In this document: positions 6,797 through 38,989 of the stretch, in pieces
Layout of the letters: the number at the start of each line of letters is the position of its first letter
How positions within the stretch are numbered: the stretch's first letter is position 1
IMG/VR virus record: IMGVR_UViG_3300048930_000687
Strand: one strand, 5' to 3'
DNA from: a virus
DNA length: 38,989 bases
Made by a program: the position numbers and the translations under genes
Notes under the pieces: generated by a model
Database searches by the model: none
Seen by the model: only the letters and a program-made list of their open reading frames with translations
What the model was told of the DNA's origin: nothing

Positions 6797-7150
6797 CTAG
6801 GAGCCTGAGCGCGCCACCTGTTGGCGCGCTCCCTTTACGCCCGCCTGGCGGGCGTGGAAGGCTTGAGAGAGTTCCGGTGACAGTTCGCCGCGTTCGACCT
6901 GGTCGAGCACCGACTTGGCGATGCGCGCCCTGCGTGCGCCTGGGAGGCGCTGGCCGTACTTGTCGAGCAGCACGTACGCCTCGTTCAGGCTGTACCCGCG
7001 GTCTTGCAGGGCCTTGGCGTCGAGTGGCCGGTCGTCTGGTGGGGCGATCACGTTGATGGCGTCGCCCGCGAGGCGTTCGGTTAGGGCGCGTTCTAGGGCG
7101 GCGCGTACCGTGGCCTCCACGGTGGCCTTGAGCACCTCATCAAGACTCAC
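6797..7150 (-). CDS. Hypothetical protein (117 aa)
   Basis: GTG start inside track ORF 6797-7225, preceded by AAGGAGG; GTGA overlap with upstream gene stop. Confidence 0.5.
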   Translation of the reverse strand: MSLDEVLKATVEATVRAALERALTERLAGDAINVIAPPDDRPLDAKALQDRGYSLNEAYVLLDKYGQRLPGARRARIAKSVLDQVERGELSPELSQAFHARQAGVKGARQQVARSGS

Positions 7151-7329
7151 GACGACACCTCCTTGGCCTTCCGGTCCGTGCCCTCCCGGGCAACTCGCCG
7201 CGCCTCCATTTCTGGGATTCGCCACTGGCTACCGACCTTGACCGCGTGGATGCGGCCTGCCTGGATGAGCCTGTAGACGCTGAACTCGCTTACGTTCAGC
7301 GTCTCTGCCAGCTCTTTCGGGGTTTTCAT
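7147..7329 (-). CDS. Excisionase-family HTH DNA-binding protein (candidate Cro/Xis-like early regulator)
   Basis: Motif AETLNVSEFSVYRLIQAGRIHAVKVGSQWRI typical of excisionase/MerR-type HTH; divergent from the repressor gene; start chosen at MKTPKE (alternatives at 7344 or 7383). Confidence 0.65.
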   Translation of the reverse strand: MKTPKELAETLNVSEFSVYRLIQAGRIHAVKVGSQWRIPEMEARRVAREGTDRKAKEVSS

Positions 7330-7422
7330 CGACAGGCTGTCCATACGCTGCACAGCATAGACCAGCAGTAGATGCAGAGTCAAGGCTGAGCGTCTATGCT
7401 ATGAACTGATGGTAGATGCGCC
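7330..7422. promoter_or_regulatory. Divergent intergenic switch region with candidate operators
   Basis: Perfect 9-bp inverted repeat AGCATAGAC / GTCTATGCT (about 7354-7362 and 7392-7400); GTAGATGC direct repeat; TTGACT -35-like hexamer on minus strand. Confidence 0.5.
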
Positions 7423-7791
7423 GTGATGCTAACTGTTGCTAACCTCGACTGGATGGCGAAAGCGTCGACATCCAGCACCCTTCGTCCCAAGTGGGGGCGC
7501 AAGCTCGCGGCTCGACGCACCGAGCTCGGTCTCAGCCTTGGGGCGATTGAGGAAATGACCAACGGCGTTGTCTATACCCAGTTGCTGTATCGCCTCGAGA
7601 ACGGTCGCATGAACCCCAGGAACCTCAAGGCTCATCAGTTGGGGGCTCTGCTGACCGCGCTAGAGTGGACGCACGAGGACTGGGATGCGTTGCTTGGGCA
7701 GCCTTCTGGAACTACCGCTGGCGTCGGTACTCCAGTCGAGACCGCGAAGGGTCACGGCAGCTCACACCTGGTTATCCCAGGGGGGTGGTGA
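7423..7791 (+). CDS. XRE-family HTH domain protein (N-terminal part of a cI/LexA-like repressor)
   Basis: HTH-XRE-like region GRKLAARRTELGLSLGAIEEMTNG...; ORF ends TGA at 7789-7791 immediately after a G6 run; track start is GTG, ATG at 7426. Confidence 0.7.
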   Translation: MMLTVANLDWMAKASTSSTLRPKWGRKLAARRTELGLSLGAIEEMTNGVVYTQLLYRLENGRMNPRNLKAHQLGALLTALEWTHEDWDALLGQPSGTTAGVGTPVETAKGHGSSHLVIPGGW

Positions 7792-8165
7792 TGGTGCCGG
7801 TCTACGGCTCAGCAAACGGCGGCAAGCCATCCGAATACGGCATCCCAGTCGACCCCGAACTAGTCAGAGGCGACAACACCCGCGCCTACCAAGTAGACGG
7901 CGACAGCATGAACACCGGCACCGAAGAAGGCATCCGAGACGGAGACTGGGTACTCGTAGACACGAGCCTCACCAAAGGCATCCCCGGCCGAGTCTTCCTC
8001 CTCGAGATCATCGGCGACGGCATGACCGTCAAACGCCTCCGCGTATTCGACGGCGAATGGCGCTTCGCCAGCGACAACCCGGAGGTCGGCGAGAGCTGGC
8101 GTGGCGACCAAGTCCGCGTCATCGGCCAGGTGTACGGCAAAGTCAACTTCAAGGCGATCCATTGA
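7791..8165 (+). CDS. S24 (LexA/cI-like) peptidase domain protein (C-terminal part of a split repressor)
   Basis: Motifs VPVYGSANGG, DGDSM (Ser nucleophile context) and TVKRL (Lys); ATG overlaps upstream stop as TGATG; frame is open for 42 codons upstream of the ATG. Confidence 0.8.
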   Translation: MVPVYGSANGGKPSEYGIPVDPELVRGDNTRAYQVDGDSMNTGTEEGIRDGDWVLVDTSLTKGIPGRVFLLEIIGDGMTVKRLRVFDGEWRFASDNPEVGESWRGDQVRVIGQVYGKVNFKAIH

Positions 8166-8222
8166 GGCAAGCAGCAACACACTGAAAAGGGTGCACGTGA
8201 ACCAAGGATGGAGGAATCCAGA

Positions 8223-9350
8223 ATGAGTAGCCGCCCTTCTGTCCAAAAAGGGGACCCTGCCAAACTAATACCGCTGAGCGACCTCGCATTTGATCCCGAG
8301 AACCCGCGGCTGCCCAAAGAACTTGATGGATCGGACGAGGCGGCGGTGCTGGACTGGATGATAAAATACGGAGCCATCAATGAGCTGATGGCCTCGATTG
8401 GTATGCAAGGTTTTTTCACTGCGGAGGCCCTGCTCGCGGTTCCGAATCCCAGCGGCGGCTACTGGGTTGTGGAAGGCAACCGACGACTGGCGGCGGCAAA
8501 GCTACTTGTAAACCCAAACCTGGCGCGATCGCGGGCGAACTCAATAAGGGACACCGTAGCTGCGGCGGATCATGCGCCAACCAGGCTTCCGGTCATTGTC
8601 TACCCGGACCGCTCGAAGATCCTCGCTTATCTGGGGTTCCGCCACATTACAGGGGTGAAGCAGTGGGATTCTCTCGCAAAGGCTCGCTACCTTGAGCAGA
8701 TGCGAGTGCAGATGACCAACGACGGTGTTCAAGAAGCTGATATGAATCGCAACTTGGCGAAACTAATCGGAAGTCGTTCCGACTACGTCGAGAGGCTTCT
8801 ATTCGGCTTGAAGGTATACGACCGGATTGTCGAGGAAGTCCTAACTGATTCAGAAGTCAAGGTCGACGAGTCCGAGATCAACTTCTCCGTCCTCACCACC
8901 GCGCTGAACTATACGAGTATCGCCGACTTCGTGGGTTTGAATCGGGAGCAGGGTGTAGAGGGTGTCTCTCGAGAACGCCTTCGCGAACTCACTCAATGGA
9001 CGTTCGAGAAGAGCAAGGACCGACCATCTAGGGTCGGTGAGTCCCGCAACCTTGCCCTCCTCGCACAGGTCGTAGCCGAGGCAGACGCTCTCCAGGTTTT
9101 CCGAGACGGGGCGCCATTGAAGGAGGCGGCCGTTTACGCGAAAGGACCCGGCAAGTTGATGCGCGAGTCCTTGAGCGCAGCACGCAACAACCTTCGCGCG
9201 GCATTTGGTGCCGTCCTGACTGTGCCTGACCTAAACGAATCTGACCGGGCCCGAGCTGAGGAAGTAAGTACTGCAAGCAATCGACTCTTGAAGTTGATTG
9301 AGAGCGTCCTATTGGACGCGGCCAACAAGCAGGATGGGGGCCATGAGTAA
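8223..9350 (+). CDS. ParB/Srx-like N-terminal domain protein with unknown C-terminal region
   Basis: Motif VVEGNRRLAAAKLL resembles the ParB GxRRxxAA box; GGAGGA before the ATG at 8223; visibly lower G+C than surrounding genes; 8-nt overlap with next gene. Confidence 0.65.
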   Translation: MSSRPSVQKGDPAKLIPLSDLAFDPENPRLPKELDGSDEAAVLDWMIKYGAINELMASIGMQGFFTAEALLAVPNPSGGYWVVEGNRRLAAAKLLVNPNLARSRANSIRDTVAAADHAPTRLPVIVYPDRSKILAYLGFRHITGVKQWDSLAKARYLEQMRVQMTNDGVQEADMNRNLAKLIGSRSDYVERLLFGLKVYDRIVEEVLTDSEVKVDESEINFSVLTTALNYTSIADFVGLNREQGVEGVSRERLRELTQWTFEKSKDRPSRVGESRNLALLAQVVAEADALQVFRDGAPLKEAAVYAKGPGKLMRESLSAARNNLRAAFGAVLTVPDLNESDRARAEEVSTASNRLLKLIESVLLDAANKQDGGHE

Positions 9351-10371
9351 CGCCAGGCAGCTGCTTACGGCTGAACGGCGACCGACTATCCGGAAGATGG
9401 ACACGCATATGCACGCAGACTTTGCTGAAGTGCTATGCCTGGTGAACCCCGACCATGACATCTCAAGCTCGGACATACTCGACCGCTTCGCAGAGCGACG
9501 TGACCTGGGCGAGGAGTTCGAGGAGGCCGACATTGATCCGGAGTTAGCATTTGGTGTTGCCGGCAACTACGAACTGCCTACTGAGCAGCCCGTGGATGGG
9601 GAGTGCGAAGAGATCGATCAAATTAGTGAGCAACTCGTGCTCCGCCAGAGGCTCCTGGGAAGCGCCTATCCTTTTCGGCTCACGGTAACCGGATCGAGCT
9701 TCCGCCTCGCTCGCAAGCAGAAGCTCCACAAAGTGCACCTACTCTACCTGTTCCTACTGATTGCTTCGGATCTCACTCGCATCAACAACCCCACCTACTC
9801 GCGACGGTTTACTAGCGCATTTGAGCGGCTTGCAGGCGAGATGATGCGACGGCTGCTACCGTCCGGAGCCCAGGTTCACCTCTTTGGCACCGCCGCACAG
9901 AAGGGTGAATTGTTCCACGGTGGTCGCCTCGGTGATCGAATGGAACTCTTGGCTAAGCACTTACGCGGTGTCTCTAAGCTGGATAGGAACCATTCTGGGT
10001 CCTCTGGCGACGCCGGCATTGACATCGTCGGCTGGGTGCCAATGGGCGATGCGGGCGACGGCCTGCTAGTTTTGATGGGCGGTGCAACGTGCTCATACAA
10101 GAACTGGGAGAACAAGGTCTATAGTACGTCTTACGGCAGATTGAAGGAAAAGGTCCAGATTCGCGTCCCTAGCGTGAATGTGACATTCATTCCGTTTTTC
10201 ATGCGTACGTCCTCCGGCGATTGGCATAGGGCCGACGAACTCGGTGAAGCTCTCCTGGTGGACAGGCTCCGTCTCATCAAGGGTTTGGCTAAGGCCGGCG
10301 ACGTAATTGAATCCATCGGCGTAAAGCGGGAGCTCCGCGACATTCTTCAAATAAGAGAGACCACCGTCTAG
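9343..10371 (+). CDS. Hypothetical protein, candidate nuclease partner of the methyltransferase
   Basis: 342 aa; acidic N-terminal region; segment GDAGIDIVGW...GGATCSYK loosely resembles Mrr/PD-(D/E)xK-type catalytic cores; sits immediately upstream of a C5-MTase gene. Confidence 0.5.
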   Translation: MSNARQLLTAERRPTIRKMDTHMHADFAEVLCLVNPDHDISSSDILDRFAERRDLGEEFEEADIDPELAFGVAGNYELPTEQPVDGECEEIDQISEQLVLRQRLLGSAYPFRLTVTGSSFRLARKQKLHKVHLLYLFLLIASDLTRINNPTYSRRFTSAFERLAGEMMRRLLPSGAQVHLFGTAAQKGELFHGGRLGDRMELLAKHLRGVSKLDRNHSGSSGDAGIDIVGWVPMGDAGDGLLVLMGGATCSYKNWENKVYSTSYGRLKEKVQIRVPSVNVTFIPFFMRTSSGDWHRADELGEALLVDRLRLIKGLAKAGDVIESIGVKRELRDILQIRETTV

Positions 10372-10386
10372 AATAGATTGGCGTCC

Positions 10387-11361
10387 ATGACTCAGGTCCT
10401 CAAATCCGCCGTTTCACTCTTCTCGGGGTGCGGCGGGTTCGACTGGGGCGTGAAGAGCGCCGGTGTCGACATCATCTGGGCGAACGACATCGACCCTCAC
10501 GCGGCCGCTGCCTACAAAGCCCTGTTCCCCGAAACCGAGTTCCATCTCGGCGACGTAAGAGACATCGCGACCTTCCCCGAAGCTGACGTTCTCATAGGTT
10601 GCTATCCATGTACGGGCTTCAGTCTCGGCTCACGGCGACGCAACCGCGATGGCGCCGACAGGGACCTCAAAGCGAACGGCGGCAACTATCTGTACGAGGA
10701 ATTCGTCAGGGCCCTATCAGTCGTGCAGCCGGCGGTCTTCTTCATCGAGAACGTCGGTGGCATGACCACTGCGTCTGACGGTTGGTTTTTCGAGAAGCAG
10801 TTGACCGAGTTCAGGCGCCAAGGATACGTCGTCAACCACAAGGTCCTAGACGCGTCAAGTTTCGGAGCAGCACAGACCCGCAAGCGACTCTTCATCGTCG
10901 GCGTCAAGCAAGAACTCGGCACAAGCTTCACTTTCCCCGAACCCACACATGGTCAGGCTGACGACCTGAAGGCACTAGCAAGCCTCCGGTCGGCGCTAAC
11001 AAATGTGAAGACTGATGTTGACACCGAGGTCTTCAACTTCAAGTTTCACGGTCATTACCTGACGAGAAACCGGAAACGCCCATGGGAAAGCCCCAGTTAC
11101 ACCATTGTCGCTAACGCACACCACGTTCCCCTCCACCCGTCCGGTGAACCAATGCGCCGCGTTGGAGTGGATCATTGGGAGCTCCAGGGCGACGTGAACC
11201 GTCGGCTCTCATGGCGCGAATGTGCCGCAATACAAGGCCTTCCCCCACAAGTAGCGCCGTCGGGAACACTGCTCGACAAGTACAGGGTCGTAGGCAACGC
11301 AGTACCTCCCGTTTTCGGGAAGACCTTGATGGAAGAGGCCACAGCACAGTTCGGCAGTTGA
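10387..11361 (+). CDS. DNA (cytosine-5)-methyltransferase
   Basis: C5-MTase motifs: FSGCGG (I), GCYPCTGFS (IV, catalytic Cys), FFIENV (VI), QTRKRLFIVG (VIII), GNAVPP (X); start could be TTG at 10378. Confidence 0.9.
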   Translation: MTQVLKSAVSLFSGCGGFDWGVKSAGVDIIWANDIDPHAAAAYKALFPETEFHLGDVRDIATFPEADVLIGCYPCTGFSLGSRRRNRDGADRDLKANGGNYLYEEFVRALSVVQPAVFFIENVGGMTTASDGWFFEKQLTEFRRQGYVVNHKVLDASSFGAAQTRKRLFIVGVKQELGTSFTFPEPTHGQADDLKALASLRSALTNVKTDVDTEVFNFKFHGHYLTRNRKRPWESPSYTIVANAHHVPLHPSGEPMRRVGVDHWELQGDVNRRLSWRECAAIQGLPPQVAPSGTLLDKYRVVGNAVPPVFGKTLMEEATAQFGS

Positions 11362-11444: not shown

Positions 11445-11546
11445 ATGACCAGCAGAGTATGTATAGACGGTGAGGGCACCAATCGTTTACTTGACGGTCG
11501 GTTGACTCGCGTCACCGTCGGTTTGGTCCCGGACGATGTCCCGTAA
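11445..11546 (+). CDS. Small upstream ORF (33 aa) overlapping the integrase start
   Basis: ATG preceded by GGGGAGGAATA; my translation MTSRVCIDGEGTNRLLDGRLTRVTVGLVPDDVP; stop lies 8 nt inside int. Confidence 0.3.
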   Translation: MTSRVCIDGEGTNRLLDGRLTRVTVGLVPDDVP

Positions 11547-12831
11547 GCGCAATCGTCGCGCGCCGGGCGAGGGCGCCATCTACGAACGCCCCGACCGCGG
11601 CACCTGGGTGGCGGCCATCGTGATCGCCTTCGACGAGCACGGACGCCCAATCAGACGCACGAAGACCACGCGCACGAAGACCGAAGCCATGGCCTGGCTC
11701 ACCGCCCAGCAGGCAGCGCTCAACAGCGGCTTGAAGCTCGGGGAGAACGCGACCCTGCAGGAGGTCGTCGACGAGTGGATGGCCGCCGGCCAAGCCCTGC
11801 GCGGCTGGGGTACCAGCACCGTGACGTCATACCGAGCCACCATCGCGAAGATCCTCCCACGCCTCGGACGCATGCGGGCCCGCGACCTCGACCCAGCCCT
11901 CATCGAGCGAACCCTCCTCGACCTCACCCGCAACGGCGCCTCACCCGCCATGGTGGCTCGCGTCCGCAGCCACCTGGCCATGGCCTTGAGGTACGCACTA
12001 CGCAAGCGCCTAATCGAGCGCGACCCGATGCTTGGCGTGGACGCACCGACCACACCGGCTCCACAGATCCAACGATGGAGCGAGGCGGAGGCCGGCAGGA
12101 TCGTCCGCGAATGCCTCGACCGGGACGACCAGACCGCCAGGTACGTGCTGGTGGCACTCGGCACCGGTCTCCGAACGGAGGAACTGCTGGGTCTCGCCTG
12201 GTCGAGCGTTGACCTCGAGGAGCGCATCCTGCTTGTCGAGCGCGTGGCGATCGAGGTCGCCGGCAGGAAGGAGCTCCGGGCGGGCGGCAAGACCGAAGCC
12301 GCCAACCGCCCGGTGCCGATCGACGAGCTGACAGCCGCAGCCCTGGCGCGGCAGGCCGAGCATGTGGAGCACTTGCGCGGCGCCCGGGCGCACCTGGATG
12401 CCAAGCGGGTCGCCGAGGGCCTCCAGTCGCTCGGCTGGGCTGATCTCGACCTGGTGTTCCCGTCGTCGGTCGGAACGGTCGTGAGCCGCAAGACGCTCCG
12501 GGCCGGGTTCGGCGATCTGCAGGAGCGCACGGGCGTGACGCGCATCAAGCTCTACGCCACGCGATCCACGCACGGGAGTCTGTTGGCCGATGCGGGAGTC
12601 AACCTGCACGCGCTGGCCGAGCGCATGGGGCACGCCGACCGGCGTTACCTGGCCAAGAAGTACCTGCGGGGAAGCACGTCGGCGCACCGCGCAGTCGCCG
12701 AGCAGATAGGGCAGATCCTTGGTAGCACGCTGGTAGCAGGAGCCTCTCCGGAGAGCGTCTCGGAAGGTCACGAACCGGCAGGAGAGGGAGCGCGGAACAC
12801 GCGGGAAGTGCGACGGGAGGCCAGTAATTGA
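11536..12831 (+). CDS. int: Tyrosine-type site-specific integrase
   Basis: 431 aa; N-terminal arm-binding-like region, core with GLRTEELLGLAW, C-terminal HGSLL / MGHADRRYLAKKY consistent with the R-H-R-Y catalytic arrangement; followed by a tRNA 3' fragment. Confidence 0.9.
   Translation: MSRKRNRRAPGEGAIYERPDRGTWVAAIVIAFDEHGRPIRRTKTTRTKTEAMAWLTAQQAALNSGLKLGENATLQEVVDEWMAAGQALRGWGTSTVTSYRATIAKILPRLGRMRARDLDPALIERTLLDLTRNGASPAMVARVRSHLAMALRYALRKRLIERDPMLGVDAPTTPAPQIQRWSEAEAGRIVRECLDRDDQTARYVLVALGTGLRTEELLGLAWSSVDLEERILLVERVAIEVAGRKELRAGGKTEAANRPVPIDELTAAALARQAEHVEHLRGARAHLDAKRVAEGLQSLGWADLDLVFPSSVGTVVSRKTLRAGFGDLQERTGVTRIKLYATRSTHGSLLADAGVNLHALAERMGHADRRYLAKKYLRGSTSAHRAVAEQIGQILGSTLVAGASPESVSEGHEPAGEGARNTREVRREASN
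12721..12744. repeat. Direct repeat copy A (GGTAGCACGCTGGTAGCAGGA), candidate integrase arm-type site
   Basis: 19 of 21 positions identical to copy at 12969-12992; contains GGTAGCA twice 11 bp apart. Confidence 0.4.
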
Positions 12832-12913: not shown

Positions 12914-12926
12914 GAAATACCGTGCA

Positions 12927-12962
12927 GGACGGCGTCGATTTGAGACGCCGTCCTTCTACTTC
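12927..12962 (+). terminator. Rho-independent terminator-like hairpin
   Basis: GGACGGCGTC-gatttga-GACGCCGTCC stem-loop followed by TTCTACTTC. Confidence 0.5.
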
Positions 12963-12968
12963 GCCCCT

Positions 12969-12992
12969 GGTAGCAGGGTGGTAGCAGGATGC
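12969..12992. repeat. Direct repeat copy B (GGTAGCAGGGTGGTAGCAGGA), candidate integrase arm-type site
   Basis: Near-identical to copy A; the two copies flank the tRNA-like core. Confidence 0.4.
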
Positions 12993-13301: not shown

Positions 13302-13827
13302 GAAGCGCAAGGGCGAACGCCAACCGCGACTTAAACTTCAGCCAACTGGCGAGTTAACAACGCCACCTCCCACCGCAGTTGAGGAAGTCCTTGAGGAGCT
13401 TGAGCCTCGGCAGAAGCAGGTTATCCAAGAGTGGATTTCCTATGCCTTCAGCGGCCCGTTGCCACCACCCAACATCGTCTCTGGCTACGACCAGATCATC
13501 ACCAACGGCGCGGATCGCATCATGGAGATGGCAGAACGTGACCAAGAGCATGTTCATGGCCTTGAGAATGCACATTCGGCTCGACTAGACAGGTTCCTCG
13601 ACAGCGACATTCGGCTCGCTCGTAACGCGCAGTTACTGGGCGGCGTTTTGTTCACCCTGATGATCGTTGCGGCTCTATTATTCGCGTTCCTAGACAAGCT
13701 GCCTGTGGCGCTAGGCACCGTTCTTTCGGCGGGACTGGTCCAAGTTGGGACCTGGTTGCTCAATCGGTATTCAAACCGCCAGCCGACTAAACCCGAACAG
13801 GACAAGGCAGAGCCCAAGGGCAAGTAG
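13294..13827 (+). CDS. DUF2335-like membrane protein
   Basis: Motif LPPPNIVSGYDQIITNGADRIMEMAE resembles DUF2335 (from memory); two C-terminal hydrophobic helices; GTG start overlaps previous ORF. Confidence 0.55.
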   Translation: MAKKRKGERQPRLKLQPTGELTTPPPTAVEEVLEELEPRQKQVIQEWISYAFSGPLPPPNIVSGYDQIITNGADRIMEMAERDQEHVHGLENAHSARLDRFLDSDIRLARNAQLLGGVLFTLMIVAALLFAFLDKLPVALGTVLSAGLVQVGTWLLNRYSNRQPTKPEQDKAEPKGK

Positions 13828-38862: not shown

Positions 38863-38989
38863 CGGTCACGCGTGAAAGCGTCACCGCTTGCCTCCGTACC
38901 AGGTCGATTGCGTGTTGCCGAGCGCGGCACGTCGCAGTTGCTCGTCGAGGTATTCGAGCGCGCCGAGGTCGCAGCGTGCTGGCGCCATG
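38863..38989. repeat. Terminal direct repeat, identical to 1-127
   Basis: Read directly from sequence. Confidence 0.9.

Follow-up and report, generated by a model that had tools for sequence, protein, structure and literature searches.

Between two divergently transcribed genes for HTH proteins lies a short stretch (around positions 7330-7422) that carries an inverted and a direct repeat, which raises the question whether these repeats are the operators of a lysis-lysogeny switch and, if so, which sequence units a regulator would recognize there. The window, i.e., the whole stretch of DNA that was analyzed, comprises 38,989 bp with a G+C content of 64%. Its first 127 nt (1-127) are identical to its last 127 nt (38863-38989), and this overlap indicates a complete circular assembly (or a terminal repeat) with 38,862 unique bases. 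Genes of a temperate tailed phage are encoded, namely for an integrase, a tape measure protein, a major head protein and a large terminase, while no tRNA gene was found in the window. Since a related prophage was found in a Deinococcota genome bin and the closest phage homologues of the regulators belong to Thermus phages, the host is taken to be a member of the Deinococcota. We consider it likely that positions 7327-7425 form the immunity (lysis-lysogeny) control region of this phage, with two back-to-back promoters and three operators. Compared as DNA with 50,697 phage records, the region had no match.

The genes that run leftward from 7344 serve early functions, those for a RecD-like helicase and a primase-like protein among them, and rightward from 7426 the genes extend as far as the integrase gene (11536-12831). 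The features on both sides of the control region are as follows:

7147 to 7344, minus strand: HTH_17 gene, 65 aa (Pfam HTH_17, E = 2.7e-11; TIGR01764 'excise', E = 1e-11)
7426 to 7791, plus strand: N-terminal ORF of the repressor, XRE-type HTH, 121 aa (HTH_31, E = 8.7e-4, below the Pfam cut-off)
7786, plus strand: frameshift site, GGGGGG-T-GG here versus GGGGGG-TT-GG in five other assemblies
7791 to 8165, plus strand: ORF with a Peptidase S24 domain, 124 aa (Pfam Peptidase_S24, E = 1.1e-14)

A preceding sequence-only reading had described a 93-bp gap between an excisionase-family HTH gene and a repressor gene. The divergent arrangement of an HTH_17 gene and an HTH plus S24 repressor was found as described; the length hinges on the start codons chosen, and with those of the metagenome gene caller (ATG 7344 and ATG 7426) it is 81 bp (7345-7425). 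The leftward (early/lytic) operon begins with the HTH_17 gene, for which an alternative in-frame ATG exists at 7329. By its position, the HTH_17 protein would take the place of a Cro- or Apl-like early regulator, and a role as excisionase is putative. For the repressor, GTG 7423 and ATG 7453 are other possible starts, the latter aligned with the annotated start of ORF36 of Thermus virus IN93. The HTH part of the repressor shows 40% identity to the LexA-like repressor of IN93, and the S24 domain 46-50% identity to LexA-like regulators of Thermus phages. GDSM and VKRL motifs (Ser/Lys dyad) are readable in the S24 domain and suggest RecA-stimulated self-cleavage; where Ala-Gly would be usual as the site of the cut, the sequence is S-A-N-G-G. 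A PDB sequence search with the repaired repressor and the HTH_17 protein yielded no match.

Both "repressor domains" of that reading are present, as an HTH and an S24 domain, and their separation into two ORFs is due to a single missing T. At 7780-7793 the window reads GGGGGGTGG and five other assemblies read GGGGGGTTGG; the corresponding loci (L009-L013) encode or begin one intact 246-aa repressor. The same 1-nt deletion was seen in L008, but since L008 is an exact piece of the window's own contig, a sequencing error at 7786 is possible. The ATG of the S24 ORF overlaps the upstream stop codon (TGATG), with the G-run 5 nt upstream, and the S24 ORF might be translated as a separate protein. The deletion could be that of a clear-plaque or non-inducible mutant, or else an assembly error, and given the frameshifted repressor the switch in this particular contig may not work as proposed below.

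Between the repressor and the integrase gene lies an interval of lower G+C content (8208-11361; 0.57 versus 0.64) with three genes, encoding a PD-Lambda-5_A-like protein with a ParB-like N-terminal part, a 357-aa protein of unknown function (phrog_3984) and a C5 cytosine methylase. These genes are probably defense or modification cargo that is expressed from the repressor promoter in lysogens. Three related loci (L009, L010, and L004) carry other genes in place of this cargo, as has been described for Thermus phages (PMC11437467). Past the integrase gene, an inverted repeat with perfect 11-bp arms (12926-12936 / 12944-12954) is followed by TGGTAGCAGGG and TGGTAGCAGGA in tandem at an 11-bp distance (12968-12989), and ACATTCGGCTCG is found twice at a distance of 35 bp. 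The two repeat regions concerned (12926-12989 and 13572-13618) are candidates for an attachment-site core, arm-type sites or excision-factor sites.

The repeats that had been pointed out in the control region are all present: a perfect 9-bp inverted repeat, AGCATAGAC (7354-7362) and GTCTATGCT (7392-7400), with 29 bp between the arms (38 bp from center to center), extendable to 12 nt at 92%, and a direct repeat GTAGATGC, with copies at 7368-7375 and 7412-7419, 44 bp from start to start. Of dinucleotide shuffles of the 93-nt region, 2.8% contained an inverted repeat of 9 bp or more, 8.1% a direct repeat of 8 bp or more and 0.28% both types together, and both types occurred in 15 of 1255 of the genome's own 93-nt windows. 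By chance, the combination is hence found in about 0.3-1% of comparable 93-nt stretches, and taken by themselves the repeats are only modestly unusual.

Conservation is more informative in this respect. Protein-guided searches recovered five independent variants (haplotypes) of the control region: the window type (also in L009-L013), L001, L004 (also in L014-L022), L030-L037, and L039. Their alignment contains no indels, and 31 of the 81 positions between the start codons are variable. None of the 18 positions of the inverted-repeat arms (hypergeometric P = 4e-5), one of the 16 positions of the GTAGATGC copies (P = 0.002) and one of the 18 positions of the promoter hexamers vary in the five haplotypes, which have a common ancestry, so that this invariance partly reflects descent. 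Variable positions are located between the sites, in spacers, and at unspecified (N) positions of the palindromes introduced below. The conservation across haplotypes argues that the flagged repeats are functional sequence and not a product of chance and, as read from this alignment, they are under purifying selection.

Further observations concern the borders of the region. The 14 nt of CTGTTGCTAACCTC (7433-7446), within the first repressor codons, are invariant at synonymous positions in the five haplotypes, whereas the downstream coding sequence diverges; in the window, TGCTAAC occurs twice, 10 bp apart (7427 and 7437). With the IN93 start aligned to ATG 7453, this block might be an untranslated leader or a further regulatory site, and the switch model leaves it unaccounted for. 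On the other side, within the HTH_17 coding sequence, a perfect 11-bp inverted repeat was noticed (AGACGCTGAAC/GTTCAGCGTCT; 7275-7285 / 7294-7304, 8 nt apart), which has AGCGTCT in common with the sequence directly before the rightward -10. It is the strongest inverted repeat nearby, stronger than the one flagged, but was set aside, as L001 and L004 do not have it. A related locus, L007 (1-1565), is a decayed copy with an internal stop in the repressor gene; its homology to the switch starts only at the rightward -10 (GTATATGCT), with an unrelated same-strand ORF upstream, and it is probably a prophage remnant without its lytic side.

The overlap of the repeats with promoter-like hexamers, as claimed before, was corroborated on both strands. 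A consensus promoter scan found one promoter (0.2 expected), TTGACT (7383-7378) and TATGCT (7359-7354) on the minus strand at a distance of 18 nt, and a second TATGCT is oriented in the opposite direction:

7378 to 7383, minus strand: leftward -35 TTGACT (promoter scan; 18-nt spacer to the -10)
7359 to 7354, minus strand: leftward -10 TATGCT (promoter scan), within the left arm of the inverted repeat
7395 to 7400, plus strand: rightward -10 TATGCT (read from the sequence), within the right arm

Both TATGCT hexamers and TTGAC are invariant in the five haplotypes; the leftward -35 is TTGACT, TTGACC or TTGACA, i.e., five bases are fixed and the sixth is free. ATG 7344 lies 9 nt past the leftward -10, and eight of these nine positions are variable. 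An identical 65-aa HTH_17 protein was called from this start in eight contigs, and both candidate ATGs are kept in the five haplotypes. Since the HTH_17 gene starts this close to the -10, the leftward mRNA is probably leaderless or nearly so. The rightward -10 is found 25 nt ahead of ATG 7426, with AG(A/G)TG 7 nt before this ATG, and the rightward transcript probably has a short leader. From these distances we infer transcript starts near 7344-7348 (minus strand) and 7407-7409 (plus strand). For the rightward promoter no conserved -35 was found across the haplotypes. The right arm is invariant and the 5-7 nt upstream of it vary. In another relative, L038, a distance of 25 nt likewise separates a TAnnnT hexamer (TACCAT) from the ATG. 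Of the transcript starts mapped in Deinococcus deserti, 94% have a -10-like motif ahead of them, with no general -35 found, and 60% of the mRNAs are leaderless, i.e., have leaders shorter than 6 nt (PMC4007540). A leaderless mini-ORF that begins at ATG 7409 and whose stop, TGA 7426, overlaps the ATG of the repressor is present in four haplotypes, is absent from L030, and was left out of the model.

That the repeats are operators of a lysis-lysogeny switch is favored in kind by the gene context, the conservation and the co-variation described below, while their pairing has to be revised. The functional units are probably three 17-bp palindromes of the pattern ATNNAC-N5-GTNNAT rather than the flagged pairs, and one of them, O1, had escaped the earlier reading:

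7328 to 7344: O1, ATCGAC-AGGCT-GTCCAT, 17-bp candidate operator; covers both candidate ATGs and the predicted leftward start
7357 to 7373: O2, ATAGAC-CAGCA-GTAGAT, 17-bp candidate operator; between the leftward -10 and -35
7401 to 7417: O3, ATGAAC-TGATG-GTAGAT, 17-bp candidate operator; covers the predicted start of the repressor transcript

Each of them is an imperfect palindrome with 4-5 of 7 symmetric positions. The pattern, which was defined post hoc from this region and has low information content with only eight specified bases, has exactly three matches in the 38,989 bp, all within 7328-7417, compared to 0.15 expected, and none of 100 shuffles gave three or more. Half-sites of the form GTNNAT are found seven times in 106 bp, with 0.51 expected (P about 1e-6), and six of the seven pair at a distance of exactly 5 bp. 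When all 7-mers in 7316-7460 were counted (one mismatch, both strands), CATCGAC ranked at the top with six sites, a number reached by none of 200 shuffles. In the related loci, too, matches to the palindrome pattern are confined to the switch region. The centers of the three sites are 29 and 44 bp apart and, as a point against the model, this does not put the sites on one helix face. As predicted operators, they would most likely be bound by dimers of the XRE-HTH/S24 repressor.

Candidates elsewhere did not hold. One-mismatch matches to the palindrome occur in the window at chance level (eight, with 4.5 expected), so a second operator cluster was not detected, and the best of those outside the switch (27453) is inside an ORF. 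Other copies of GTAGATGC (133 and 32780) are within coding sequence and have no partner half-site. A scan of IMG/VR for GCATAGAC-N5-GTAGATGC gave six matches, five of which are in unrelated low-GC contigs with no further similarity and are attributed to chance.

Seen against this arrangement, the flagged repeats can be decomposed. The left arm AGCATAGAC consists of the leftward -10 and the left half-site of O2, the right arm GTCTATGCT of the rightward -10 and an orphan GTnnAT half-site, and each GTAGATGC copy corresponds to a right half, the first to that of O2 and the second to that of O3. By this decomposition, the 9-bp inverted repeat arises because two -10 hexamers of the same sequence face in opposite directions and each abut a half-site, and it is not a binding unit itself. 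The orphan half-site, GTCTAT (7392-7397), has no partner at the N5 distance in any haplotype, and the invariance of the right arm (GTC plus TATGCT) is only partly explained by the switch model. Alternatively, the inverted repeat itself could be the operator unit, or form a hairpin or cruciform, with the GTAGATGC direct repeat as a second type of operator. The perfection and invariance of the arms and the near-invariance of the GTAGATGC copies, with the P values given above, would fit this reading, but a separation of 38 bp is too large for one HTH dimer, and the left arm has its partner in the GTAGAT located 5 bp away while the right arm is a -10 hexamer. An RNA structure was rejected as well: folded as a single strand, the region gave z = -0.84 (32 of 200 shuffles fold equally well), an Rfam search of the region yielded no match at E<=1, and the two arms are never part of one predicted transcript. 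For O1 as an RNA hairpin, the loop would be 1 nt, and this candidate was discarded. Overall, we regard the inverted repeat as a unit of its own as very improbable.

Another alternative would be that the conserved blocks are promoter and translation signals only, the palindromes being a by-product and the repressor binding elsewhere or recognizing something else. In favor of this, six of the nine bases of each arm are TATGCT, properly oriented for divergent transcription, and the right half of O3 (GTAGATGC copy 2) overlaps the Shine-Dalgarno-like AG(A/G)TG before ATG 7426. O3 is also the least conserved of the three sites; its right half is GTAGGT in L004, L030 and L039, a drift towards the better Shine-Dalgarno AGGTG. 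In L030, both halves of O3 are altered, yielding the perfect palindrome CCTAC-TGCTA-GTAGG with unchanged spacer length. Other evidence is at odds with a role as signals only. O1, which plays no part in a promoter, is ATAGAC-TGGCT-GTTCAT in L030 and L039 and thus keeps its eight specified positions while the N positions and spacer vary. The half-sites of O2 are invariant, while its spacer is CAGCA, TGTCA, CGCCA or TCCCA depending on the haplotype, and 11 invariant bases (7366-7376) fall into the spacer of the leftward promoter. Promoter function alone sets no sequence constraint on such spacers. Moreover, three sites with a 5-bp spacer stand against zero elsewhere in 39 kb, and relatives with other DNA-binding domains carry other repeats in the same places. 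Therefore, we consider it quite improbable that signals alone account for the conserved blocks, and the three palindromes as operators remain our preferred reading.

These relatives connect the sites to the repressor, as the repeats change together with its DNA-binding helix. All five haplotypes having the motif keep the repressor helix region GVVY(T/S/A)QLLYRLENG. In L038, this recognition-helix region has K and V substitutions, and the intergenic region carries its own 27-nt repeat, with two copies at the same 44-bp spacing and a third, partial copy. L002 combines an unrelated HTH with the same S24 domain and neighboring genes and has three copies of TACCA-N6-TAGTA, and IN93 has a different DNA-binding helix and different repeats. 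The first leftward gene of L002 differs as well: the C-terminal part of its 151-aa product matches the second, HTH_17-type product of L001, and its N-terminal segment, absent from the window and from L001, reads like a Cro/XRE-type HTH when judged by eye. Comparison of L002 with L001 indicates that the HTH_17 gene, the control region and the N-terminal domain of the repressor are exchanged as one immunity module. A side case is L039 (1131-1556), which has the same operators and repressor N-terminal domain but, in a protein of 141 aa overall, an unrelated C-terminal segment faintly similar to HTH_23 in place of S24; such a variant would be a repressor beyond inactivation by self-cleavage.

The joint exchange can also be read in favor of the HTH_17 protein, which could bind all or part of the sites in the manner of 186 Apl or P2 Cox, i.e., as early-lytic regulator and excision factor in one, either instead of the S24 repressor or in competition with it. 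Its gene opens the lytic operon and its DNA-binding family is that of excisionases, the surroundings of the integrase gene contained no further Xis candidate, the tandem TGGTAGCAGGG repeat with its 11-bp spacing (12968-12989) lies past the integrase gene, and a dual role of this kind is known for 186 Apl (PMC7498355). Apl-type sites, however, are direct repeats one helix turn apart (PMC7498355), whereas here six of seven half-sites are in palindromic pairs, which would suit a dimeric XRE-type repressor. Among the relatives, changes in the HTH_17 protein always coincide with changes in the DNA-binding domain of the repressor, and the two are not separable on this basis; L038 is uninformative in this regard because both proteins differ (36% identity for its HTH_17 protein). 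We consider binding by the HTH_17 protein unlikely as an explanation of the sites, and in the following the S24 repressor is taken as their predicted ligand.

The proposed mechanism would then be as follows. The leftward promoter would drive the early/lytic operon, beginning with the HTH_17 gene, and the rightward promoter the repressor gene, the defense-like gene set and the integrase gene. Repressor dimers on O1, at the lytic start and start codon, and on O2, in the lytic core promoter, would turn off early transcription. Relative to the predicted rightward start, O2 is centered at about -42, and repressor bound there could at the same time stimulate the weak repressor promoter and offset its missing -35. 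Lambda CI at OR2 activates PRM from the same relative position. Occupancy of O3 would result in negative autoregulation of the repressor, or O3 might be bound by the early HTH_17 protein in a Cro-like role. Induction would be brought about by RecA-stimulated self-cleavage via the S24 domain. In a more far-reaching version, the switch would be compact: O2 would block the lytic promoter (from about -18) as well as activate the repressor promoter (from about -42), O1 would be built into the start codon of a leaderless lytic gene, and the excisionase-fold protein would serve as Cro and as excision factor like 186 Apl, with the deletion splitting the repressor into DNA-binding and separately translated S24 pieces and generating a virulent or non-inducible variant abundant enough to assemble as a complete circle. 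In its entirety, we regard this combination as rather unlikely.

With respect to known switches, the closest parallel in layout is the textbook OR1-OR2-OR3 region of lambda. In both cases, the genes of a repressor and an early-lytic regulator are divergent (with an 81-bp gap here), and three 17-bp imperfect palindromes are spread over two back-to-back promoters. HTH and S24 domains are present in both cases, in this contig, however, on two ORFs, and in five other assemblies of the same phage type in one 246-aa protein. As in lambdoid phages, the immunity module that is exchanged among mosaic relatives comprises the DNA-binding domain, the operators and the first lytic gene. However, the PDB chain search detected zero sequence similarity between lambda CI and the repressor of this phage, and the first lytic product is an Xis/MerR-like HTH_17 protein and not a Cro-fold/XRE protein. 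Site spacings are about 23-24 bp in lambda compared to 29 and 44 bp here, one operator here covers the start codon of a lytic gene whose mRNA is probably leaderless, and a second, distant operator cluster was not found in the window.

By homology, LexA-like regulators of Thermus phages (IN93 ORF36/ORF28, Lalka8, Lalka27a, Tsatsa and Riverbug) are closest in the phage collection, with tblastn E-values from 1e-10 to 1e-24. In IN93, the xis-like ORF28 is likewise divergent from the LexA-like ORF36, and Thermus phages also have variable defense-like genes between repressor and integrase (PMC11437467), corresponding to 8208-11361 here. They differ in the DNA-binding helix and in the intergenic sequence, and IN93 is a membrane-containing icosahedral virus in contrast to the tailed phage studied here. 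Their loci have been likened to the switches of lambda, P2 and 186 by gene order only, with operators unmentioned (PMC11437467). Similar to 186 Apl and P2 Cox, a small excisionase-family protein is encoded by the first early lytic gene, adjoining the repressor gene (PMC7498355). The sites themselves are arranged differently, Apl using direct repeats one helix turn apart (PMC7498355) compared to palindromic pairs and a 44-bp direct repeat in this phage. Sites shared between the switch and the attachment region, as for Apl, were not found here, the tandem TGGTAGCAGGG pair past the integrase gene being a different motif. The promoters of this phage are back-to-back. Those of 186 and P2 are face-to-face.

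Overall, the locus is a new and well-resolved lambda-type switch in the under-studied group of Deinococcus-Thermus phages, its principle being already known. In the papers found and read, no operator or promoter of a Deinococcota phage was reported, and the one consulted for a LexA box of the host gave none. The analysis provides predictions at the level of single bases for the three operators, both promoters, the lytic transcript, which is probably leaderless, and the recognition-helix residues, and it describes a phage family with at least five sequence variants across many metagenomes. The region could supply a regulated and possibly DNA-damage-inducible promoter/repressor pair for the genetics of Deinococcus and Thermus, and it offers a comparative case in which lambda-like logic would have been rebuilt with an early regulator of the excisionase fold.
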